64,000 bases of DNA, taken from the NCBI RefSeq assembly GCF_040938485.1, contig NW_027271913.1, positions 1,302,001-1,366,000 on the forward strand, given 5' to 3'. Position numbers and translations under genes: made by a program. The first letter of the stretch is position 1; each line of letters opens with the position of its first letter. The notes beneath the pieces were generated by a model. The model worked only from the letters and a program-made list of their open reading frames with translations, had not been told where the DNA came from and did no database searches. This document shows, in pieces, positions 22,549-64,000 of the stretch. The stretch is from Diadema antillarum. Lineage: Eukaryota.

Positions 22549-25500
22549 TCACATCTGCGAAGACTGGTGACCTAACAGCTGTTTGGTTCGTCGACTGATG
22601 CTAAAACAGTTCTCCAGGGCAGCAGCATCTCTTGGGTCAGATGGCTACCAAGTGAAAGATGAGAAGAGAAGGAAAAATCAGGAAGAGCAAGACTGATTTC
22701 AGTGCTGCAGAAACATCTGCACAGTGCAAACAAGTCCTAAATTTACATATCTTTGAACCTTCGAAATCAACTTCTCTTCATACAATTAAGTTTTGTAATC
22801 GCTTTGTTCAGTCTCTCTGTTCTGAGAAGTTCTTTCATTCGTCCTGCATCCAACATGCAGCAATTCAATCTCACTGGAGTCAATGCACTTTGCCAAAGCT
22901 GAATGTCAGGGACTGGTGAATTACCTTAACTTCAATAATCATACACTAATACATGATACAATTACCATACACTTTTTTATTTAGGTCTGAGAAGGATTTC
23001 AACTGAGGTAGACGACATTCAACATAAGTGACTTAGACTCACACATAGAAGTGACTGTAGTTACTTCAATAGGTCCAAATGGGCTGGACACAAGGAAAGT
23101 GGACTCTATCTTCAAGTCTTCAATGGACTTTAACACAGGCAACTGAACACCAAAATAGTGGCAGCTGAGCTTTGTGACCATCGTTACTTACCTTCCAAGA
23201 ATGTCTTTTTGTGGCTTCTGTCATCTCTTTGATTTCTGCTTTGACCTTGACAATGTTGCGCAGTGCTGGACGGACCGTAACACCATCTTGTTTGGGTAAA
23301 CTCCTACAAGAAGGAACAAATGCTGATTTGTGAAACATGTGTTTGCCTTTACAATGATGAATGCACATATTCAACTTCATTAAAGTTCATTTGAGAATAT
23401 CATCATGTTGAGTCATTTTCATTCATTGTTATTGTTTTGTCTGCTCTAAAATTGATCACCTCCTCCCTCCACCCCCCCCCCCCCCCCACTGGAAAAAAAA
23501 AATGGTTTGAAAATGCTTTTATGTGAATGGTCCCAAATTCCAAGTATGACAACAACAAATATGCTGGAAGAACAATTTATTATAAGAGTAATTATCATAC
23601 TAACCCTTTGACTAAACTGTTGCATTCCTTTCCCTATACAGTCAACCTCGGATACCTCGAACTCGGATAAGCCGAATATCGCTTACCTCGAAGGCAAAAT
23701 GAAAGTCCCGATTGTTCCTATGGAGTTTTCGTGTGTTAAAATTTGCGTAGCTCGAAAAAAACTAACTCGAAGTTCGGTTACCTCGAAGGGAAATCTCATG
23801 TCCCGATCTTAATTAACTTATTGTTTTTCCCAGCATGTTGCTCGAATTGAAATTGCAAACATCACTCAGCATTTCTGATGAAGCGCGCGTGGACAGCGAA
23901 GACATGTCACAAATCTTTTCACACTCGATTGTAAATATTCTTAGCCCCCAGAACGATCGTGCGCTCAAAGAAATACCCGGTACACAGCAGACAAGGAAAA
24001 TCCCCAACACCTACTGTACCTACACACGTACACGGTATGCGTATAGCAGCCGTGCAAATGGAGTGCTTACAATAGCACTACGCTCTGCCCATCATCTTTC
24101 TTTGACCACTCTGTTTTGATTTGCGATCGTGATACTAGTATACCATAGTCATGCCGTGCGCGTACATTTCTTAACCGTCGTGGCGCACTTGCTGAGGTGT
24201 TGACAGTTGTATCTTTGGCATTAATCACGGTCCACTGTCCAAACATCAGTCTCCCGCTAGTGTTTTTTTTTTTTACTTTTTTTCCTTTCACGAAGTTTGT
24301 TTCATTAATTCTCCGCCGAGAACGCAAGCTCTGAATATTCTTTTTTTCCAGCAATGCGATTATGAAAATAGTGTGGTACTAAGTAGTATATGATCTGAAA
24401 GTATAGGCCTAGCATAATAAAGAATAGTATAGATATGATTTAACAACAGTTTATTCTGATAAATTTCGAAGTAACGGAATAATATGCTTTACGATTTTCA
24501 GACAAAAAAAAAAAAAATCATCATGTATTTTACCCCTGTTTTGACTTGAATCTTTTTTGAGTTTTCGGTATTTTTTTTTTCTTTTCTTTTCTAGCACAAT
24601 CGTCAAGGCCCCCTAAGATTGTTTCGCTTTTTTTTTAATGCGAACAATCCTCTTCGGTAAATGTTTATGATTACAGTAATAGCACTGTCCTCAGAAGCCA
24701 TAGCCGGAATCTGATCTTGCAATATTACTCACTACTCAAGTAGCCCATCCTTCATGTACTGTGCTGCACTTATTCAGGGCTCGACACTTACAGTGGCCCG
24801 GGGCCACCAAAACGCACGTCGGGCCACCAAAAAAAGTTGGATGTTTGCCTTTACTTTTGGAGATAAACAGCGGTAACAATCGGCCCCGAAAGTTGCTGCA
24901 ATGAATGTCAGATGATTGCTTTTGATTTTGGAAATGAATAACAGTAATATTCGACTCCATATACGATACTAAAATAAATGTCGGATGTTTGCTTATACTT
25001 TTGGAAATGAATAACGGTAAGATTCAGCTCTGTACAGTGCTTAAATTAATGTCAGATATTTGATTTTGTGTTTGGAAATAAACAAGGATAACATTCGGCT
25101 CCGAAAGATACAAAAATAAATGTCGAACGATCCCTTAGACGTTCGGAAATGAATAACAATAGTATTCAACTCCGTATGACGTTTGCTTTTATATTTGAAA
25201 GTAAATAGCAATAACATTCGGCTCCAGAAGATGCTAAAATAAATTTCGAATGTTTGCTTTGACGTTTGGAAATAAATAATAATATTCAACTCCGTACGAT
25301 GATAATATGAATGCCTGATGTTTGCTTTTACGTTCGAAAGTACATAGCGATAACATTGAGCTCCGGAATAGGCTAAAATGAATGTCGAATGATCCCTTTT
25401 ACATTTGGAAATGAATAACAATAACAATCAACTCCGTACGATGATTAAATAAATGTCGGATGTTTGCTTTTACTTTCGAAAGTAAATAGCAAGAACATTC

Positions 25501-28500
25501 GGCTCCGGAAGATTCCAAAATAAATATCACAGTCATGATTGCTTTTACATTTGGAAGTGAATAGCAGTAACATTCTGCTCCATACGATGCTAAAATAAAT
25601 ATCGGATATTTGCTATTATACATTTCGAAATTAATAACACTAACATTCAGCTGCGTTTGATGGTAAAATAAATGTCTGATATCTGCCTTGACGCTCAACA
25701 ATGAAAAACAGTAACATTCAGCTCCATTCGACGATAAAAATTTGTCAGATAATTCATTTCACTTTTGGAAGTGGACAGCAGTAATATTGGGCTCCGTATG
25801 ATAGTAAAACGAATGTCGGATGTTTGCTTGGAAATTTAGAAATGAATAACAGTAATATTCTGCTCCGTATGATACTAAAATAAATAACTGATTGTTGCTT
25901 TTACATTTGGAAATGATTAACGGTATCGTCTGCTGACTGTGAGTGCTGCTGGTAGACACATGGAAGACCGGTGCGTAGCGGTGCGTAGCGGTGCGTAGTT
26001 GTGTGAAATTTTAATAGTTTGCAAAGCTAAGACTGTGATTCTTGTGTTGGATATTGTGTAAGAGATGATGACTTAGAGAGAGAAAAGGAGGAAAAACGAA
26101 TAGTGATCGAGGGGGTACCTACGCCGACGCGACAATGTACATTCAGCACGCATGTTCTGCAACCCTGTCTTGCACTCGATTACGTACCGGTATTTTCTTT
26201 TTGTTTTTATGGTGATAAGTCATTAAATTGTCCACCAGAAAACACTGATGAAAGAAGAACATCGATTTTCATTCAATTCATTCATATTAAAGTCGATTCA
26301 AATCCAACTGACAAGCATACAAACAATCGGTAGGCACTGTAACAGATACCATGTTGAACATCGACAAAAATCGGATAAGTCGAAGAAAATTCGACGTACG
26401 CGTACCTCGAAATTCGCGTACCTCGAACCAATTTCTTCAGTCCCGACGACTTCGAGGTATCCGAGGTTGACTGTAGTTTTGTCTTGTATTCCTCCACAAC
26501 AATTTAGATGAAAAGATTGCATTTCACTTATTTAATTAATTCTAATAATTCCAACCACACTAACAAAACATGTCTGCATCATCTTGGCTCCTTGGTATCA
26601 AGAGCTCCATGTCAACAGACGTCCACCTCATTGTACTCTGTAGATTCTTCCAGAATCAGAGCAAACTTTCAGTTTGATAAATCAGCACTTTACATTATCA
26701 TACTCTCTACTTTGCTTAGAGACCTCAACGACAAGATCTACACGCACTGTAGGTTTCTCAGACTCACTGGGCTGTAACAATGAGGTCAAGGGTAATTTTG
26801 GCCAGCTCCATCAGGGCCAGAGCCTCGTCCCTGGACACCTGGAACTCCCCTGACCCAAGCCAGGCTGTCATAGGAAAGAAGACCTCCAGGGAGGGCCACA
26901 TGGAGTCCCATAGGTCCACCACGCTGCCAACGATGTGGAAGTAGGTTGGTTTCCGTGGCAACTTGAGGACCTGGCAGTTAGACGAGGATGGCAGGGATCA
27001 TACAATGGAAGGAAAACATGAGGTGGGAATACTGTGATCACACAAACATCAGAGTATGGCATAAATATGATTATGACACAATTAATATTTCATCCTTAAT
27101 GTTATTCAATGAATGGCAACACTTGGGTCATTTCACGTTAAGTGTACACTTTTTTTCTCACGGGGGGTCAAAAATGAAAGTTGTTGTTCGGGGAAAAAAC
27201 ATACAGATTCTAAAACCTTAGGGTATATTCAATCTATATCTAAAATTAAAGAGCGTCAAGTCCATGTTTACATCTTTAAATAGTTTCCTAAAATATAGTC
27301 ACAAAAACAGGCGTCTGGAGAGGACATTTTGTTTAACAAGAAACACATCAGCTTTATCAAGCCTGTAACTGCTACAAAAATGGTTCTCTGTGTATTTATA
27401 TGTTTGTATCTGTATTACTGATCCAATGTCAATGTACTCATTTAAACTTCAGTCTAGCCATATTTTGCCACAAAACTGATGTATCATGTGGCAAACTGAG
27501 ATATGGAGGGGTAAATTGTATTTAGTGACATAAAAAAAATATAATTTTTCTTCGTATATAACTTCAAATTTGATGCACAGTGTTTTATTTAAGTCTAAAT
27601 TATTTGTTGTTGTGTATAATGATTAAGTAATTGCAAGAACCAATCAGCTGTGAGCTTATAAACCTTAGTATATTCAGGGGTGTTGGAGAGGGCAATTATT
27701 TAACAACAACCTCTACAATTATGAACACCAACTATATGAGCTAATATGTGAATTTATACGATGCATCAATCAGTTTTAACATTTCTGCATAACTGTACTC
27801 CAGATGTTATTGCAATGCTCAAGAGCCAAATCACATTAAAACAGTAAAAAACTTCAGAGTGGACACCCAAGTACAGCTCCAATTACTTATAAGAAAATAT
27901 TGCCTGAAAATTTTGAAGTTAACGCACAATAACACGTTTATTAAGCAATGTTTTACTATAAAAGGAATGCTGTTGTTGTTCATTGATACATCATTGTTAA
28001 TATTGTGGTCTTATTATCTACCCAATGGGAACTCTCAAAGAATGAATAACTGATAAGTTCTGGAGAGGACATTTTGTTTAACACTAAAATTTGGAAGCAA
28101 GATTGCTGAAAGACCATGAAACTTGTTTGATCTCTCTATGGTCTTTCAGTGCACTTCTCTGAGGTCTTTCACAATTCCTGATTGATCTGTCAGGGGTCTT
28201 TGTGGTCTCCAAAACTTCTTGAAATGGTTCAAAGCAGTCTTTTAGTAGTCATTCACGAAAATGGTCTGCTGGTGATCTGTCAGGGATCTCTCAATTAAAT
28301 TGCAAAGGTGTTATTATTGTCTCTCCATGATCTTGTGACAGTCTCTCTTTTCTTTTGTTTTTTTTTTGTTTTGTTGTTGAGATCATTGAAAGACTGCTGA
28401 GAGATCATTGAGAAATCATTGGAAGACCAGTGAAAGTCCATAGAAACCAGTGATAGACATGCATGGAGATTGCGAAAAGATCTTTTTTGAATCCAAGATC

Positions 28501-31500: not shown

Positions 31501-34500
31501 ACTCTTGCTCCGAGATGAAGCACTTCGGGGGGAACCGGTGCTGCAGCAGTAGGGAGGTGGTCTTGTAGCTGCACTTAAAGGTCTTCTTTCTGTGTTCCTC
31601 CATGAGAGCTGACACATTCAGTTTGTCTGAAACCTATAAGTAATGGAGTTCAAACAGGAGTTTTGATAGTCTCATGCGATTGTCAAACTTCCTGTTATCC
31701 TGGACAAAGAGCATTAACATAGATTACTTTAAAGGGAAGATAAACCCCAAGAGCAATGTGGATTGAGTGAAAGCAACAACATTAGTAGAACACATCAGTG
31801 AAAGTTTGAAGAAAATCGGACAATCGATGCAAAAGTTATGAATTTTTAAAGTTTTGATGTTGGAACCGCTGGATGACGAGACTACTTGAGGTTATGACGT
31901 ATGAGTGGACAACAATACCGAGAAAATATAAAGAAAATTCCGCAAAAATCCTTTTTTCATGAAAATTACAAATTCCATCAACTTGATGTTGACATATGTT
32001 AAGGGTAGCAATTATTCCCCCTGCTTTCTGAAAGCGGTTGGTCCATTGCTCTTTCATAATTCTAGAAAAGTGAATTTTTGTTGAATTTCCTTTACATTTT
32101 CTTTGTATTGTTGTCCACTCATACGTCATATCCTCTAGTAGTCTCCTCTTCCAGCGGTTCTAACACCAAAACTTTAAAAATTCATAACTTTTGCATCTAT
32201 TGTCCGATTTTCCTCAAACTTTTACTGATGTGTTCTACTAATGTTGCTGCTTTCACTCAATCCACATTGTTCTTTGGGTTTACCTTCCCTTTAATAATGC
32301 ATTCAAATTGAAGCATATTTCTGTCAAGAAATCATCCATGACAATTTAATATATTTGTTGTTGTTATTTTGATTTTTTTATGTGCATGAAATTCAGTTGT
32401 GAATATTTACAAATGGTACTTATTGTTTTGTTGAATTAAGAAGAGAAATATTCAAATAAAACTAGAAATATCGCTATGGCGACTGGTATGCCTCCGTCAT
32501 AATGCATGATTCTCCTAATAGGTCTATAGTTCATGTGGCCAATGTGTGATTACATTTTCACAAAATTGGAAAAATATTTAAAATTACATGTTTGTCACAA
32601 ATGTGTTGAATGTTCACCTTCCTCGACCTATGTTTAATTGGATGAATAGGAGAGCATGTATTTGGGGATTTAAGAACTTAACTTGACTTTGACCCTTTCA
32701 TAAGTTTATTCATTGAGTAATTTTCAAGGCATGGAGAAAAAATTTGAAATCACTTCCATAGACTGTGCTAGAATTATTCTCGGACCGAGAATAAATGCAA
32801 TTATCATAGATATCTTCATAGTTAAAGTGAAAACTAAGTTTCGGTAAGTGCTTGAGAAACCGTCTAGCACCATTTCATTTTTGCTTGCAATATATCGAAA
32901 GAGTCCACTAAGAAACTTACCTGGCTGACGCAGTTTGCCGGAATGATGAGTCGGTTTGGAGTATTTTGAGAAAAATAATAATAGTAGGAAAACCGACTTT
33001 TATTCCAGAAGGCTCCAGACTAACTCGGTCTCGGGAAAAATTCAACCCTACTTCAGACAATTCACACGCAGTAAGTGATCGCCACATTCTACTGGCCACT
33101 GCATAATACCAAATGAGGCCTAACTGAATGGACAGGAAAGTGCATGCTACGTAATCCTGTACAAATCAAAAAAAAATGACAGCGCGCGGTCCTCAGTTGC
33201 TGAGACGCGCGGTCTTTGGAGTTTTTGTTGTTGTTTATCAAGCGCCTTTGGTTGTTTTAGAGGTGCTTGATCGGCGCACACTAATTTTGCATGCGCGCAA
33301 AAGAGGTTTTTGATGCGCGCGTTGTAACAACTCGGACCATTACTGCGAGTAGCCAAAACACGAAGCGCTAGTTTATACAGGCCGCTCCCATAGGACAACA
33401 CGGTACAATCAGAGGGACAACCATTACAACTCATCTCGCCGTCAAAGCGAAGCCGAGTTATCCCCGAGTCCGAGTTTAGCCTGACCCCGTTCGGGTAAGT
33501 TCTGTGACTGAACCTTTTTGGTTAATGTTTCGCATTTTCGTCGTTACCCATCGAATATCTTGTAATAACATCGTTATCCTGCACATTTCCTAAGCATACG
33601 TTCACATTTGGGAGCGAAATTTGACAACTTTTGCAGGCGTACCAGAACTTTGTTTGGGCTTTAATGTGTTACTTTCATTATTTTTGCATTCTTGTTTGTT
33701 TTGTCATCCATCTGAACATAATTAGACTGGTCAGGCAGCTCAGTTTTAGAATTTTTTAAATCAATCAAACACAATGTTAATCAGTGGCTTTTAACTGAAG
33801 TTTATGGGTCTAACATCTGTAATATTATAAAAATATTTTATTTTTGTTATATCATAAGGACCTTTGTGACCTTTGACCTTTGACCCCAAAATACCAGTGA
33901 ATATTTGTCTTGTCATACTCTACCCTCACACCAAGTTAAACGTTCATGTCTAATAGTATGTAAAATACTGTATCAAAAGTTATTTTTTCACAAAATAACC
34001 TGTGACCTTTGACCTTTGACCCATGACCCTAAAATCCAAACAAAGTATTATCCCCCCAGGATATACCCTCATACCAAGTTTGATGTAAAACCACCACACG
34101 GTTCTTGAGATATCGACAAAAACAAAACGGGACGGACGTACGTACGGACGGACGGACGGACGGACGACCCGAAAACATAATGCCTCCGGCCACTTCGTTG
34201 GCGGAGGCATAAAAAAGCAATGCTGCATTATTACTGCAATTTTGGACATTCTGAACAGACCATCTTCACATATCACTGACGTTTGTTTGGTATTTTTTAA
34301 TGCTGGAAGTGTGTCTGACTTTGTAACAAGTTATGTATCCAAAGATAATTCTGAGATATTTGGCAAGAAAGCTTTCTACACACAGTATTACTTGCAGCAG
34401 GTGATGAACTTTGGAATCCATTTTGAAACTCATGCATATCTGTTTGCCACTTAGTTAGATACATAATATTCCAAAATACCATTTCTTGAATATTTCTTCA

Positions 34501-53882: not shown

Positions 53883-54690
53883 TATTCAGCAATTACATAA
53901 AGGAAGAATGTGCAAGGCTTTGGATATTGTACTGGTAGTGAAACAACACTGTCCACATGGTGATATGTATGCAAACATAAACAAGGAAAAGTAGAAATTA
54001 CGCGGTGCGTAAAATATGTCCCCGCCGGAAGTAGCATTTAGTAGCAAAATGTACAATATCGGTAAAAAATCAAGGTCAAAGGTCAAAGAAGTCAAAGGTC
54101 AAAATTCTGTGTAGAAGTTTTGAAGCCCTCACCTAGTGCCATCACAAAAAGCAAACGGAATCGAAATCGGGTTAGAAATGGCGAAGGAGTAGCATTTTGT
54201 AGCCAATGTACAATATAGGTCAAAAATCAAGGTCAAAGGTCAAAGAAGTCAAAGGTCAAAATTCTGTGTAGAAGTTTTGAAGCCCTCACCTAGTGCCATC
54301 ACATAAAGCAAACGGAATCGAAATCGGGTTAGAAATGGCGAAGGAGTAGCATTTTGTAGCAAAATGTACAATATAGGTCAAAAATCAAGGTCAAAGGTCA
54401 AAGAAGTCAAAGGTCAAAATTCTGTGTAGAAGTTTTGAAGCCCTCACCTAGTGCCATCACATAAAGCAAACGGAATCGAAATCGGGTTAGAAATGGCGAA
54501 GGAGTAGCATTTTGAAGCAAAATGTACAATATAGGTCAAAGGTCAAGGTCAAAGGTCACAACTGAAATTCTGTGTAGAAGTTTCAAAGCTCCCATGTAGT
54601 GCTATCATATAAAGCAAACAGAATTAAAATTGGCTCATAAATGACAGAGAAGTAGCAAATTGAACATTTTGATCACACACGGACGCACAG

Positions 54691-56191: not shown

Positions 56192-56936
56192 GACGAGTCT
56201 TGATCTGTGTCACGAGCAGAACAGAACTTCTGCTGTCAGAACTGTGGGATTGAAATAAGAAGTTTTCATTGTCATCATCACTACAGCTAGCATATTGTGT
56301 CATATCTGGCCCAAAATGCTGTAATCATCTTTGTATGTGCTGTGATCTCCAGGGCTGTATATCATCTATTTTTTTTAATTTAATAATTTACATGTTTACT
56401 TTAAATGATTTGAAAAAGAATCGTAATTGTATCATAATTTAGTTTTGAATAAACTGCTTAGTATTAGAGCTCATTGTATTGCCATCAGAACATATCTTAT
56501 CAAATATTTAGACATAGTACACTTACAAATCAATTACCTGGTACAAGATTATAGTCTATTACTTTACAGGATCCTAGGAGGAGTTCAACTTACCATCCTC
56601 TTGTGATTTATTCAAAGATAAATAGATGTCATATTGTGATATAGCAAAGCTGACATCAGTCAGGTCACTTCAATAACCATGATAACAAGCAAAATAGAAA
56701 ATTAAATGAAAAACATTGAAATTTAATTTGTATTTTATGAGTAATGGGAGGATAGAGAATTCAGCCATTGGCTGCGCATTAGCCATTGGCTGAATTTGCG
56801 TAATATGAGAGGCCGTTCCGCGCGCAATCGCCATCTTTGAAAGCTGATGACTACTGTGAAAAAATATTTCGAGATAAAATAGATCTTGTATAAGCCACAT
56901 TTAAGGCTGTTCAGAGTAAGGGAGGGAGCGGAGGGT

Positions 56937-57085
56937 GCTGAATTCTCTATCCTCCCATTACTCATAAAATACAAATTAAATTTCAATGTTTTTCATTTAA
57001 TTTTCTATTTTATCTCGTAATGTACGGTAGAGAATTCAGCCATTGGCTGCGCATTAGCCATTGGCTGAATTTGCGTAATATGAGA
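56937..57085. repeat. DIRS internal complementary region (ICR)
   Basis: 56937-57011 is the exact reverse complement of 56691-56765. 57006-57085 is the exact reverse complement of 61570-61649. The two parts overlap at the CTA-TTTT-ATCTCG junction. Confidence 0.95.
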
Positions 57086-57150
57086 CTTCAAAGATTTTCA
57101 CAGTAGTCATTTTCACCGAATATATTGTCAGAGAAAGTTTTTGGGCAACT

Positions 57151-58167
57151 TTACCTATGTTTACAGGACTGAATCTTGTCCCTTCCTAGAGGTTGTCCCA
57201 GAACTGCTTGTCCAAAAGATGTTGCCTGGGATGCCGGTTTCAGGTAAAAATTCCTGAACGTGGATTCATTTTTCCACCCAGCATGCTTGAGAATGTCTGC
57301 TATTGGAAAATGATTCCTCTTGGCAGATGAGGTTGCCGCCGATCTCGTTGAATGTGCTTTGAAGAGATCGGTGTCGATACCTGATGCTCTCAACACAGTT
57401 TTTATCCATCGAGCGATGGTTTGCTTTGATGCCTTCCCATGGGGTTGCTTGTAGGTGACAAATAGTGCATTCACCTCCTTCCTCAATGTGCTTGTTCTGT
57501 TAATGTATTCTTTAACATAGTGTACAACACAGAGTTTCTTATCCTCGGGAAAGGCTTTCAGTGTTACTTTCACTCCCACATTCCCAGGTTGACTCTGCTT
57601 TATCAAATCAGCCACTGCTATTTCCACACAATCTTTGGACGCCTTCACATTGTTAAGGGTTAGGTATGAAAGTGTTTGCACTCTTTGGGCAGAAGTCAAC
57701 GCTAGTAAAAAACATACTTTGTGTGTCAGTTGACACAGCGAAATCTTATGAGCTGGAGTTACTTGTCTGAGGTAGCTCAGCACCTTGCCCACATCCCATA
57801 TGAAGCTGTATCTCGGAGTGGGTGGTCGGAGATTAAAAATGCCCCTGAAGTACCGGCAAATCCAAGGATGTGTAGAAATGGTGTATTTCTCGTCCCGTAG
57901 AAGAACAACTGATGCTAGTGCGCTCCTTGATGTATTCAAGGTGCTGTAGCTTGCTCCATTTTTGTACATAGAATTAAAAAACGCAAACAAATTTCCCACC
58001 TTCGTATGGGTCCAACATAAGTGACGCTCATGACAAAACCTTTGCCACTTCCTAATATACACCATATACTGCTCCTTGGTGGATTTCCTCCAAGACGCTG
58101 CCATTATATCAGCAGTCTCCTCCGTCAGTCCTTGAGCTATGAAATGTTTGCTCCAACCCTGCAACAT
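57151..58167 (-). CDS. DIRS ORF3: tyrosine recombinase with N-terminal SAM-like integrase domain
   Basis: Catalytic motifs AQR (R), KAHSTR (HxxR), AGW and RNFY (Y). N-terminal SWRKST..QY..Y..KW..FC is also present. Confidence 0.95.
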   Translation of the reverse strand: MLQGWSKHFIAQGLTEETADIMAASWRKSTKEQYMVYIRKWQRFCHERHLCWTHTKVGNLFAFFNSMYKNGASYSTLNTSRSALASVVLLRDEKYTISTHPWICRYFRGIFNLRPPTPRYSFIWDVGKVLSYLRQVTPAHKISLCQLTHKVCFLLALTSAQRVQTLSYLTLNNVKASKDCVEIAVADLIKQSQPGNVGVKVTLKAFPEDKKLCVVHYVKEYINRTSTLRKEVNALFVTYKQPHGKASKQTIARWIKTVLRASGIDTDLFKAHSTRSAATSSAKRNHFPIADILKHAGWKNESTFRNFYLKPASQATSFGQAVLGQPLGRDKIQSCKHR

Positions 58168-60197
58168 AAGAGGGAGAGATGTGTAAGTGGATGGGGTCTA
58201 CCTGTAATGGGTTGGGTTAACAACTGGTGTTTTCGCAATACCCAGGGCTCCTCCAATAGCATGTTACGTAGTACGGTATACCAGGGCTGTGTTGGCCAAT
58301 TTGGCACTATCAAAATTCCCCTAGCGCCATCTTGTCTGATTTTTTGGAGACACTTTGCAACCAAGCTAAATGGGGGAAACGCATAAAATACTAGGGGTCC
58401 CCAGTCAATAGTGAATGCGTCTACTGCCCATGCCCCTGGATCTGGTCTCCAGGAGACGTATGTTGGGAGCTGGGCATTCAGTCTGGTGGCAAAAAGGTCT
58501 ACATTTGGTAACCCATACCTCTGCACTATCTCATTGAATATTGTCTTGTCTAGCATCCATTCTATATTGTCATTGAATTTCCTTGACATCGTATCAGCTT
58601 CTGTGTTCTTAGAGCCTGCTAAGTGAGATGCTGTTATCCAAATTTGTCGTCTACTGCACCAATCCCAAATTTGCAACGCCATTTCGTTACATGCTTCAGA
58701 CTTGACGCCGCCCATGTTATTCAAGTATGTCACCGCTGTGGTGTTGTCTAATCTCAACAGTATATGTGCATCTCTGACATTTGAACAGAAGCTTTTGAGT
58801 CCCAAACCGGCTGCTAGCATTTCCAGATAGTTTATTTCATTACCTGCTGCTCTTGCTAATTCTTGAGCATTCCATCTACCCCCTGTCTTGGATTGCAGGT
58901 CTGTGGCACCCCAACCTTGTCCACTAGCATCTGTTCTTATTTCTTTTGATACTTTCCCTGGGTACAGGGGTTTAGACACGAGATGTGCATGGGATGACCA
59001 CCAAACTAGTTCCGCCTTGGCTCTATTTGATAGGCTCATATGTCTATCGAAATGTCCTTTCTGTTTTCTCAGGGCTCTGATTTTTTCCCTTTCCAGCTGC
59101 CTGTAATGCAAGGGGCCGTACTGAGATGCTGGTAAGGCAGCCACAATCTTCCCAATGACTTTAGCTACCTCCCGGATACTAGGTTTGTTATTAGCAAGTA
59201 AGGATCGACATGCATCTTGAATGTCATTGCTTTTACTGGCTGGGAGGGTGATTCTCATTTCAGATGTATTTAAATGGAAACCCAGAAATTCAATCTCACG
59301 GGATGGTTCAAGTACCGATTTCTCTGAGTGAATAATGAACCCTAGACTAGTCAAAAGGTCAGTGGTGGCTTGCACTGCTGAGCGAGTGTCTGCTTTATTG
59401 TTCCCAATTATCAGTGTGTCGTCCAAGTACGACAAAACTGTGTGCCCCTGTTGTCTTAGTAAGGCAAGTACTGGTTTCAGTATTTTGGTGAACAGTCTTG
59501 GGGCGGAAGATAAGCCATTTGGCAAAGCTTTGAACTGCCACAATTGGTTTCTCCATACGAAGCGGAGATATTTACGAGAGTCTAAGTGAATGGGAATTGT
59601 GTAGTATGCATCACGGAGGTCTACTGAAGCCATATAACACCCTTTTGAGAGGAGTAGAATACCAGATTGAATATTATCCATTTTAAAGTGTTGGTACTGA
59701 ACACTTTTGTTGAGTTCGGACAGGTCAAGAATTAATCGAACTCCTCCGTTCTTTTTTGGTCTCGTGAAAACCTCTGAAATAAATTCCCCTTCTTCATGGG
59801 CACATTTTTCAATGACCTGTTTTTCTTCCAGAACAAGAATCTCATGGTCAATCTTGGCTGTTTCTTCAGCATTCCGCTTGTAAGAACGCAGAGGTTTTTC
59901 TCGAGAAGGGGGAAATTTTTCTGGGTCAAATTCTATTGTATAGCCTTGAACTGCTTGAATAATGTGTGAGTCTCTCGTGATATTTTCCCAAGCAGGGAAA
60001 AATGGCTTCAGACGACCTCCGACGACAGCTGGTGTTGTAACTAGATCGTTGTCTATGTTGTGTTCATAGTCACCTACCTGTTCTATTTCCTCCCCTGGCT
60101 TTGGCTCTGCCTGTGGTAGGTTGGCTGCTTGTTGCCACCCTCCCTTGCTGCTGTCGGTGTGTAAGTGTGAGGAGGATCTCGAGGTCTCCCCCTCCAA
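58137..60197 (-). CDS. DIRS pol ORF2: reverse transcriptase, RNase H and Dam-like methyltransferase domain
   Basis: RT motifs RLILDL, DLRDAY, LPNGLSSAPRLF and SYLDD. RNase H residues TDAS, NYLEMLA, RLDNTTAV and ADTMSR. MT-like DLFAT and YAFPPF. The track start is TTG, and the first ATG lies inside the RT domain. Confidence 0.95.
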   Translation of the reverse strand: MEGETSRSSSHLHTDSSKGGWQQAANLPQAEPKPGEEIEQVGDYEHNIDNDLVTTPAVVGGRLKPFFPAWENITRDSHIIQAVQGYTIEFDPEKFPPSREKPLRSYKRNAEETAKIDHEILVLEEKQVIEKCAHEEGEFISEVFTRPKKNGGVRLILDLSELNKSVQYQHFKMDNIQSGILLLSKGCYMASVDLRDAYYTIPIHLDSRKYLRFVWRNQLWQFKALPNGLSSAPRLFTKILKPVLALLRQQGHTVLSYLDDTLIIGNNKADTRSAVQATTDLLTSLGFIIHSEKSVLEPSREIEFLGFHLNTSEMRITLPASKSNDIQDACRSLLANNKPSIREVAKVIGKIVAALPASQYGPLHYRQLEREKIRALRKQKGHFDRHMSLSNRAKAELVWWSSHAHLVSKPLYPGKVSKEIRTDASGQGWGATDLQSKTGGRWNAQELARAAGNEINYLEMLAAGLGLKSFCSNVRDAHILLRLDNTTAVTYLNNMGGVKSEACNEMALQIWDWCSRRQIWITASHLAGSKNTEADTMSRKFNDNIEWMLDKTIFNEIVQRYGLPNVDLFATRLNAQLPTYVSWRPDPGAWAVDAFTIDWGPLVFYAFPPFSLVAKCLQKIRQDGARGILIVPNWPTQPWYTVLRNMLLEEPWVLRKHQLLTQPITGRPHPLTHLSLLCCRVGANIS

Positions 60198-61414
60198 GCC
60201 TTCCCTAAAAAAGGCTGTGCAGATGAACCGGCCATGGGGTTGGAATGTGATGTTCGGCGGTCATAACCCCTCCCCAACGGGCGGGTGAACCCAGTCGACG
60301 TGTATTGACGGCGAGATGTCACATCCGGTTTCTTGTACGGCTGGAACCGTGATTGCTCTCGTGTGAAGCGTGATTTCATCATGCCTGACATTGTTTTCCT
60401 TTGTTCTTGGATCTCTTTCACTTGGCGCCCCAGGTCATCTCCAAACAAGTACTTAGTCACTTTGTGAGAGGGCTTGCACAGGTGGTGGAAATTTGAGTTC
60501 ATGTCAGGCTTTATGCTGTCCTTTCTCATGCAGTTGAGGGAGAAGTTTGCATCGCAGAGAAAAGCCATAGCATCCTGCTGAGCTTCAGACAAAGTTGCTG
60601 GAAGGGTACGAGCAAACGCGTTTATCCCTTTCAAGAGGGATGATTGGATCATTTGTAGTTTCAGATCCCTGTGTCTCGTCCCCGTCGAGATGTTCTCCCA
60701 GATAGTGCTGTTCACTTTAGGGGTTTCTAGACATGTGCAGTTAGATGGGCAGGGGTAGCGAGTTGCTGCTTCGTCGAGAGATTTCTGGTCAAGTTTTTGT
60801 CCCATCATATACACAATGGTGTCCGCGACATCCTCATCTAGTGGTTCCCCTATCCCGGACGGAGCCACGAATTTCTGAGCCATTCGTGGTATCTTGAATT
60901 CTGGCCGTTTGTCTTTATCTGCCTCCTGTAGGCCTACGTCCGAAAACAAGCTGACCGCGTCATCGCGGTTTGCCGATAGGAAATCAGCCACGCTGCGATT
61001 ATCCGCCAATTCTATGACGGGTGGTGAGCTGCTACCCCTTTGTGTGTCGCAGTCGCCATATTCACTAAAACAATCCCGCGGCGTGTTGGCATGTTGTTCT
61101 CCATGATGAGGAGTGCTCAAAGTCTCGATCATTTTTTCGAACATTGACTCGAGTTTCCCAATGCGGGACATAACCTCCGTGCTATTTTCCGCTGTAGTCA
61201 CAGTCGGGTTGGGAGCGGTAGCAGCTGGTGCGGGCGGGTTCGGCTGTGCCTTCCCCGAAGCCGCGGGGCGGGATGCCTTAGGCCTCCCGCCGCTAGACAG
61301 AGTTTTGCCTGCAGCCTTCTTCTTTGCTGCCGGAGCTGGGCTGGCCTTAGGCTCACACAGCTCGGTATCTTTTTTGGCTTTTGCCTTCTCCGATTTGTCA
61401 GCTGGTTCATCCAT
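60083..61414 (-). CDS. DIRS gag-like ORF1 (443 aa from first ATG)
   Basis: Long open frame. The C-terminal half (LETPKVNSTIW, D.KLQ.IQ, AFLCDANFSLN..RK..IKP, YLFGDDL) is typical of DIRS ORF1. The track start at 61432 is GTG; the first ATG is at 61414. Confidence 0.85.
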   Translation of the reverse strand: MDEPADKSEKAKAKKDTELCEPKASPAPAAKKKAAGKTLSSGGRPKASRPAASGKAQPNPPAPAATAPNPTVTTAENSTEVMSRIGKLESMFEKMIETLSTPHHGEQHANTPRDCFSEYGDCDTQRGSSSPPVIELADNRSVADFLSANRDDAVSLFSDVGLQEADKDKRPEFKIPRMAQKFVAPSGIGEPLDEDVADTIVYMMGQKLDQKSLDEAATRYPCPSNCTCLETPKVNSTIWENISTGTRHRDLKLQMIQSSLLKGINAFARTLPATLSEAQQDAMAFLCDANFSLNCMRKDSIKPDMNSNFHHLCKPSHKVTKYLFGDDLGRQVKEIQEQRKTMSGMMKSRFTREQSRFQPYKKPDVTSRRQYTSTGFTRPLGRGYDRRTSHSNPMAGSSAQPFLGKAWRGRPRDPPHTYTPTAAREGGNKQPTYHRQSQSQGRK

Positions 61415-61720
61415 GCTGAGAACGATAATCACGCTTGTAAGAGAGCACGAATTCAGTTCCGTATTTCCGCAGATTTCGATGATATTTTCCGATTTTTCGG
61501 TCAGATAAAAATCGCTTCGCGATCGAACATTGCGCTGGAACGAAGATGGCGATTGCGCGCGGAACGGCCTCTCATATTACGCAAATTCAGCCAATGGCTA
61601 ATGCGCAGCCAATGGCTGAATTCTCTACCGTACATTACGAGATAAAATACATGTGTAACTATACACGTCATCTGATCTCTGGTCAGGCTAGATAACAAGC
61701 AGTCGCAAAATACACAGCAG

Positions 61721-61862: not shown

Positions 61863-63139
61863 CAACAGTACTCTCTTTGCACCAAAAGAATCTCGATTTG
61901 AATTTCATGGCTCTTGTTTCTTTCCAACAATCACATATATGCGCATGTGACCTGGCAGACTGTTTACTCTTTGACTATTTGTCATTGTTGTTGATGTTAT
62001 GTTCAGCTTCAGTGAGCTTCATTCATTCAGCCTGAGTTCATCAAACAGGTAAGACTTGCTCGAATGGTGGGGCATTTACGTACCTGGTGTAGCTGGCTGG
62101 TAACCCCGGGGCGCTCCTTCAGTGGGCTTCACACAGTAGAACGCTCCCCTTCGCGTTCGGGCTGGTCGTAGTTAGTCGCAGTGCATCAGTAACGTTAGTA
62201 AATTTTACTTGTAGTTGATCGGCATGGTTACCGTGGGTCTTCTCACGGCCACGACGGGAGGCACTGTGTGAGCTTGCTTGATCATGAGCATATTTCTTCC
62301 CGATCCAATACCTTCTAATCTGTAATCAGTGTTCAGGTGTCTTTCGAGTTCAGTAGTCGGTGTTCGATACTTGCAGCAAGAGCAAAAGTCAAACTCTGAG
62401 ACGACGACGCGTCAGCGCAGTAGTCTGGGCCTGGTATGTATCACGTGCATGGTATCAGTGTCACCTGACAGTTGCTAGCGTTTATTGAAGGTGTCACCTG
62501 ACACACTGAGTACGAGTAGTCAAGAGCGAACGAATCCACGTTTCGATACTACGCTGGATAATGCTATCTCCACGCACTGATGCCGATGTCGTGAGTATCA
62601 CCATATTTTAAGTTCGGTGTCTCACTCACTGTGCTTAATTTTTTCATGTAAGACGCTATGTAACATATTCATCCAACGTTTTAACTACTACTTACGGGAG
62701 TAGGTGCCGAGCAGAGTATGGAAGTGCGTAGTCCCATATCTTAAAATCTGTGTAATGTTCGCTGAGTACCGGAACACCACACCATGGCCATCCCTTGTCC
62801 TATTACCCCGACGCGGGGCATCGGCACTGTAACTTTTTTGGGGTCGCCATGTCCATGCACCACCAGCAAACATGCATTGCATGCATGCAGCAGTATGATA
62901 AGTCACTAGACCTTAAAGGACAAGTCCACCCTTGTATACATATGGATTGAGTGAATGCAGCAATAATAATATTTGTACAGTAAATTAGAGGACATCATAG
63001 CCCGACCAGACGCTGTTACGCTATGCGAAAACAGCGTCTGACGAGCGCGGCATGCAGCCTCAAAGTGAGGAACCTCAACACAACTACAAAACTTAGGAAA
63101 ATGTATACTTTTCTCCTTTAAACAGAATACTTTACTCAC

Positions 63140-63621: not shown

Positions 63622-63842
63622 GTAAGTTTCATTACGTACATTTGAATACTGATAGCATCAGATGTAGAGTAAATATTGAAGAGTATACTCGATGAGTTTG
63701 AGGTGACAAAAACGAACGTAAGTATCGAAAGTCAAAGCTATCGTGATACAATTACGTCGCTCTCCTAGTGGTTGGTGGTCGCGCTCGTACAGCCCTGTCG
63801 CGACGTACCATGTACAGCGACTGGGCTGTGTATAGTTAAGGA

Positions 63843-64000
63843 CATCAGTAAAAGTTTGGGGAAAATCTGACAATCTGTTCAAAAGTTATGAATTTTTTAA
63901 GTATCTGCACAGTCACTGCTGGATGAGAAGACTACTAGAGTGTATGATGTCACATGCGTACAACGGTATAAGGAAAATATAAAGAGAATATCACAAAATG
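63843..64000. mobile_element. Partial copy of the same Kolobok-like MITE family, running off the window end
   Basis: Shares catcagt..aaagttt..gaaaatc.gacaatc....caaaagttatgaattttt and gctggatga..agactact with 31790-31930. Confidence 0.7.

Follow-up and report, generated by a model that had tools for sequence, protein, structure and literature searches.

The window analysed here, 64,000 nt of Diadema antillarum DNA (contig NW_027271913.1, positions 1,302,001 to 1,366,000 of the forward strand), carries on its minus strand a whole DIRS1-like retrotransposon, recognizable as such by the open reading frames (ORFs) of gag, pol and a tyrosine recombinase (YR), its inverted terminal repeats (ITRs), an internal complementary region (ICR) and NTT ends. 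Two signals stand close together at the end of gag: a slippery heptamer in gag phase, at which a programmed -1 ribosomal frameshift very probably gives access to pol, and a splice site 5 nt past the gag stop, which sets YR in the same -1 frame and had been overlooked in an earlier, preliminary description of this DNA. Features and their coordinates are collected in Table 1.

The gag/pol junction and the splice behind it

Gag codons 401-403 read CCU UUU UUA, followed by GGG AAG, and the heptamer at 60212-60206 is correctly phased, as the preliminary description had it; it is the sole X XXY YYZ heptamer within the 178-nt gag/pol overlap. Pol lies at -1 to gag and opens past a TGA at 60263-60261. 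The absence of an early ATG in this frame was also borne out: the first pol methionine is residue 194, inside a match to the reverse transcriptase (RT) domain RVT_1 that begins at residue 168. A UUG in the pol frame stands at 60197, shortly after the heptamer.

The junction between 60078 and 58158 was predicted from the sequence before any RNA reads were examined. Both of its sides are in phase 0: the last exon base at the donor with respect to the pol frame, and the first base past the acceptor with respect to the YR frame. RNA runs were chosen by species label, and about 12% of each was read. In poly(A) RNA a single joint was found in the whole element, skipping the same 1,919 nt between GT and AG, in four reads with three different starts from run X12; none was seen in runs X10 and X11, which had lower coverage, nor in the DNA contigs of run X4. 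A second family, L041, had next to no coverage in the RNA runs. The donor 20-mer is present in 33 copies in the assembly, and all 33 donor sites run on into the intron, while none of 37 assembly candidates starts at the acceptor. An intron-less genomic copy was therefore dropped as the source of the joined reads, and a GT-AG junction found in RNA and absent from DNA marks a spliceosomal intron. The YR frame, taken as an open frame, extends over 58197-57151 and overlaps pol at 58197-58137; since this overlap holds no heptamer and the splice is seen in RNA, the idea of a further -1 shift leading from pol to YR was rejected.

Table 1. Features of the DIRS1-like element, in window coordinates
Feature	Position	Strand	Basis or detail
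Whole DIRS1-like element, 4,956 nt	56693..61648	-	ATT at both ends
Left ITR	61543..61648	-	91% complementary to 56729-56837
Right ITR and extension	56693..56837	-	inverted-repeat pairing, copy ends
ICR	56937..57085	-	100% complementary to both ends; junction matched
gag ORF, 443 aa	60083..61414	-	ATG 61414, stop ends 60083
pol frame (RT, RNase H, methyltransferase (MT)-like tail), 707 codons stop to stop	58137..60260	-	first AUG 59681
Slippery heptamer U UUU UUA	60206..60212	-	gag phase, codons 401-403
Predicted 8-bp hairpin, candidate stimulator	60169..60194	-	60194-60187 with 60176-60169, P 0.93-0.95, 11 nt past heptamer
43-codon -1-frame linker, shift site to splice donor	60078..60206	-	common to predicted Gag-Pol and Gag-YR
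GT-AG intron, 1,919 nt, removes RT/RNase H/MT	58159..60077	-	sequence prediction, then 4 RNA reads
YR exon, 335 codons past acceptor	57151..58158	-	PF00589, PF02899; first own AUG 58104

Conservation of the junction among DIRS1-like families

To place the junction in context we drew on a census of 97 loci, 22 from the element's own genome and 75 from metagenomes; vertebrate, fungal and Dictyostelium DIRS elements fall outside it, and a single distant locus on a viral contig was left out. Eight loci lack an RT start and 22 are broken at the junction, and the 67 kept fall into 34 families when grouped at 80% RT identity, with RT sequences 43-70% identical to that of the window element. Each of the 31 families that keep gag and pol as separate frames has an intact member whose pol is at -1, and each overlap contains a slip-type heptamer in phase. 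Pol is at -1 in 61 of 63 intact loci, and both exceptions (L043 and L096) have -1 siblings. The heptamer is UUUUUUA in 25 families, AAAAAAC in three and UUUUUUC in one, and in the remaining two it is the near-canonical UUUUUUG; with that proviso, the arrangement is that of a frameshift signal, an in-phase X XXY YYZ heptamer in an overlap whose next ORF is at -1.

The placing of UUUUUUA goes beyond chance. In phase, the 1,498 overlap codons of the 31 families contain it 25 times and the 10,833 codons of the gag body 0 times, and out-of-phase occurrences in the overlaps number 0. Phe-Leu near the C-terminus is itself conserved (17 of 17 retrieved Gag homologues, out of 25 found, one of them an identical protein labelled Diadema antillarum by NCBI), but the pair is coded U UUU UUA in 25 of 27 instances at the site against 1 of 98 elsewhere, a bias which argues that the heptamer is more than a conserved Phe-Leu. 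From the heptamer to the RT start, 108-300 nt, the -1 frame is open, as it must be by the definition of the overlap; the +1 frame is open over this stretch in 0 of 31 families, and over an upstream stretch of the same length the -1 frame, too, is open in 0 of 31. Five families have a -1 frame whose opening lies no more than 6 nt from the heptamer.

On the family tree, UUUUUUA is found in both main clades. So is AAAAAAC, implying at least two origins for the latter, and slip-type heptamers of differing sequence replace one another among families. The site is thus an old feature of these DIRS1-like families and did not arise by convergence in this copy alone, which corrects the convergence presumed in the preliminary description. 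Its central proposal, programmed -1 frameshifting to yield Gag-Pol, is supported as the best reading of the sequences, in which frame, phase, heptamer class and position are all conserved.

The splice sites show a comparable constraint. The best-scoring donor is in phase 0 in 29 of the 31 families, versus 85 of 205 other GTs, and lies 2-44 nt past the gag stop. A blind acceptor pick is in phase 0 in 23 of 30 families, versus 119 of 486 for all AGs; the misses all fall in one clade, where the site homologous to the RNA-confirmed acceptor is in phase 0. In that clade, which includes the window element, the acceptor is a TGCAG inside pol Cys-Arg codons, and in the other it lies about 215 nt further upstream, where a pyrimidine-rich AG is found within or close to the FPPFS motif of pol; six families have a YR frame that opens at precisely this FPPFS-type AG. 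A comparison of pol 3' ends (L041-L135) shows that the TGCAG clade mostly reads FPPFC where the FPPFS of the other clade supplies the AG.

The other three families (L062, L076 and L077) form a clade that serves as a natural control. Gag and pol are joined there in one ORF of 1,150-1,254 codons with no heptamer, yet the phase-0 donor is kept. Donors are paired, 5-8 nt apart, and precede the RT start by 77-72, 104-99 and 371-363 nt, respectively; past the phase-0 donor 392-398 YR codons are open, whereas the phase-1 donor meets an immediate stop. These elements are predicted to make Gag-YR from the former, free Gag from the latter and Gag-Pol from unspliced RNA, all without a shift.

A held-out set of 14 loci fetched afterwards provided eight usable families; L150-L152 had no RT start, L153 (23% identity) was another element, L156 had a broken gag and was represented by its sibling L158, and L157 was of the same family as L155. 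Pol is at -1 in all eight, and seven combine an in-phase heptamer with a phase-0 donor. The eighth, L149, is taken up below. It is worth noting that L145-L152 are DIRS elements in records titled as bacterial metagenome-assembled genomes, where host DNA was likely binned.

Downstream structure and alternative explanations

The stem proposed in the preliminary description stands in part. Its two strands are predicted to pair, but in a shifted register of 8 bp; the 6-bp register drawn there (-8.0 kcal/mol on paper) has an ensemble probability of 0. The CCUC/GAGG pseudoknot suggested at the same time was rejected, as its arm would span no more than 4 bp, with a loop side that is altered in the one diverged copy inspected, L056 (no pseudoknot folding program was used). 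Across families, the mean folding z-score 5-55 nt past the heptamer is -1.45, versus -0.72 to +0.15 in six control windows. The hairpin probably helps the shift.

Several observations weigh against the account developed here, in which one shift serves both pol and YR. Stimulatory structures of eukaryotic -1 signals usually lie about 5-9 nt downstream, and the 11-nt spacer of the window copy is long; its hairpin is modest (z -1.3), the 81 nt downstream of the heptamer are not unusually stable (z -1.29), and stems of at least 5 bp are only slightly enriched (25 of 31 families versus 17-22 of 31 in controls). The families share ancestry, which makes the counts above non-independent trials, and the donor scoring matrix used textbook frequencies. 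L149, at 40% RT identity, has a -1 pol with neither an in-phase heptamer nor a good donor. The junction was seen in four reads with three starts in one of three RNA runs, and the RNA source was an organism 95-99% alike rather than this individual; the X4 DNA, too, is from a different individual. An AUG in the pol frame precedes the RT start in 14 of 31 families and the RT core in 23, and on spliced RNA the in-frame YR AUG at 58104 lies about 60 nt past the gag stop, which makes reinitiation at YR possible. L149 also has a far longer YR overlap, and another strategy is possible there.

The YR AUG at 58104 underlies the main rival, in which the shift would yield Gag-Pol only, and YR, rather than being fused to Gag, would be made from spliced RNA by ribosomes that reinitiate at this AUG or reach it by leaky scanning. 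Indeed, 58104 is the first AUG past the gag stop on spliced RNA, and a methionine lies ahead of the conserved YR motif SWR in 17 of the 31 families. However, the other 14 have no AUG there, phase-0 donors (29 of 31) would need no conserving if YR began afresh, and the fused clade is predicted to join Gag to YR in frame through the same donor phase. We therefore consider this explanation unlikely. Pol might instead start internally, at the near-cognate UUG 60197, at a downstream AUG or on a subgenomic RNA, with the heptamer reflecting conserved Phe-Leu. The UUG does follow the site closely and most families do have the AUG ahead of the RT core noted above, but eight of 31, the window element among them, do not; moreover, the site shows a fixed choice of codons (25 of 27 versus 1 of 98) and AAAAAAC can substitute with other residues, so that this reading appears highly improbable.

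The U-run itself invites two further explanations. Followed by AG, it could be a 3' splice acceptor for a spliced pol mRNA, with no frameshift involved: UUUUUUAG is acceptor-like and is present in 20 of the 31 families. The AG is nevertheless absent there in the other 11 (UUUUUUAU, AAAAAAC, UUUUUUG and UUUUUUC), no RNA joint at the heptamer passed the 3-read threshold at a depth of about 16, the strict gag phase would be left unexplained, and even a pol RNA made by splicing would have to have a start codon; we give this possibility very little weight. Alternatively, polymerase slippage on the six-U run could add a base and place gag and pol in one frame without any ribosomal shift. The genomic copy L054, whose run has an extra base and whose frame is fused, indicates that the run is slip-prone, but RNA reads show no insertion at 60212-60206 (at low depth and a 3-read threshold), and neither the fixed phase nor the seventh base would then be relevant, which leaves slippage with a negligible chance of being the explanation. 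Ribosomal frameshifting at 60212-60206 remains, in our view, very probable on these conserved features.

The element, its relatives and a model for its expression

The limits of the element are well defined by its copies, divergence starting at ATT in the flanks of 10 left ends and eight other right ends; ATT ends are found across copies except for one right end with AAT and one left end with GTT, in agreement with the circular junction. About 25 copies are 99-100% identical, and the family is young. Pfam matches comprise RVT_1 in pol and Phage_integrase (PF00589) in YR; RNase H and the Dam-like MT are sub-threshold in the window copy and above threshold in 8 of 44 and 22 of 44 aligned relatives, respectively. 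At least 120 pol homologues are among the matches listed. The 5' leader carries a 44-codon upstream ORF (61635-61501, minus strand) with three AUGs sharing its frame, which closes before the gag AUG and whose presence in the mRNA hinges on the start site. Longer T-runs, either mutations or assembly errors, make pol and YR read as a single 1,034-codon frame in L027 and L028 (G000 C253 and C2109) and likewise unite gag with pol in L054. Elsewhere in the window are a degenerate tandem array at 24803-25948 (period about 71 nt, at least 13 copies), a tandem repeat at 54030-54664 (period 157-158 nt, about four copies) and, at 31729-32294, a MITE-like inverted repeat of 235 nt (90%) that encloses 96 nt, to which pieces at 62913-62971 and 63833-63902 are related.

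Splicing decides which proteins are made from one genomic RNA in Drosophila copia, with its spliced gag RNA, and in foamy virus, with its spliced pol, and in this the window element is like them; they splice instead of frameshifting, whereas the window element appears to stack both. For the published systems that follow, our statements refer to the portions of the cited papers available to us. DIRS1-like YR retrotransposons have been described with the same gag, RT/RNase H/MT and YR ORFs, ITRs, ICR, ATT ends and overlapping ORFs, and the available text gives the overlaps with no frameshift site, splice or fusion products (PMC3266345). The HIV-1 signal is U UUU UUA with GGG as the next codon (PMC4373837), and the window element shares with it this heptamer in gag phase, the GGG codon, a (here predicted) downstream stem-loop and a -1 pol. 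The preliminary description was right about this context as far as the heptamer and codon go, but the 3' likeness is incidental, GGG being the next codon in only 7 of 31 DIRS families, and the idea of a special 3'-context kinship to HIV was dropped. Also unlike HIV-1 are the 11-nt spacer to a stable stem and the branching of the -1 frame, by splicing, into a second enzyme. DIRS pol has no protease or integrase (PMC3783388), so that its fusions would stay uncut, unlike those of HIV-1.

Among animal LTR retrotransposons pol is at -1 in 28 of 51 elements, with classical heptamers in a gag-pol overlap as here (PMC5009743); integrase is inside their Pol, whereas the recombinase of the window element is a separate exon, and the first 300,000 characters of that paper make no mention of DIRS. 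For Ngaro elements, in which YR is likewise at -1 to the preceding frame, pol, a pol-to-YR frameshift has been suggested (Poulter and Butler, 2015, as quoted in PMC13003380); in contrast, the window element would shift at gag/pol and reaches YR by a splice seen in RNA, with no pol/YR heptamer. Neither a DIRS gag-pol slip site nor a gag-YR splice appears in the available portions of PMC3266345, PMC7192593, PMC9210276, PMC6681497, PMC3783388, PMC5633606, PMC9940879 and PMC5009743, and we found no description of either in the literature, though Repbase, subscription reviews or supplements might hold one. Gag-pol -1 frameshifting is in itself of a known kind; what appears to be new is that DIRS1-like families would share it and couple it to a splice by which the recombinase takes the place of Pol.

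From the observed sequence, frames, conservation and RNA splice junction we infer a shift, its rate, a role for the hairpin and two fusion proteins, which can be arranged as follows. Most ribosomes would halt at the gag stop and release Gag (443 aa). A minority would slip by -1 at U UUU UUA, probably helped by the hairpin, and translate the 43-codon linker. On unspliced RNA these ribosomes would go on into RT, RNase H and MT to give Gag-Pol (1,092 aa), and where the RNA has been spliced from 60078 to 58158 their path would lead into YR to give Gag-YR (781 aa). We consider it likely that one -1 shift serves both fusions in this way. For animal DIRS1-like elements in general, the data tilt towards an ancestral three-product switch, in which the shift would set the ratio of Gag to enzyme and the splice would choose between Gag-Pol and Gag-recombinase, with one clade having given up the frameshift, fused gag to pol and regained three products by means of a donor pair spaced 5-8 nt.

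Animals commonly carry DIRS elements, and in the literature we found, the translation of their overlapping, often start-less pol and YR frames is not explained. The model presented here names an exact shift site, donor and acceptor, with the splice already observed in RNA, and the families offer a sizeable natural collection of putative -1 signals whose stems vary, as well as a rare case of a frameshift and a splice that would act in series. If it is true, the recombinase travels as a Gag fusion, and this would account for its packaging together with the cDNA in elements lacking a protease.

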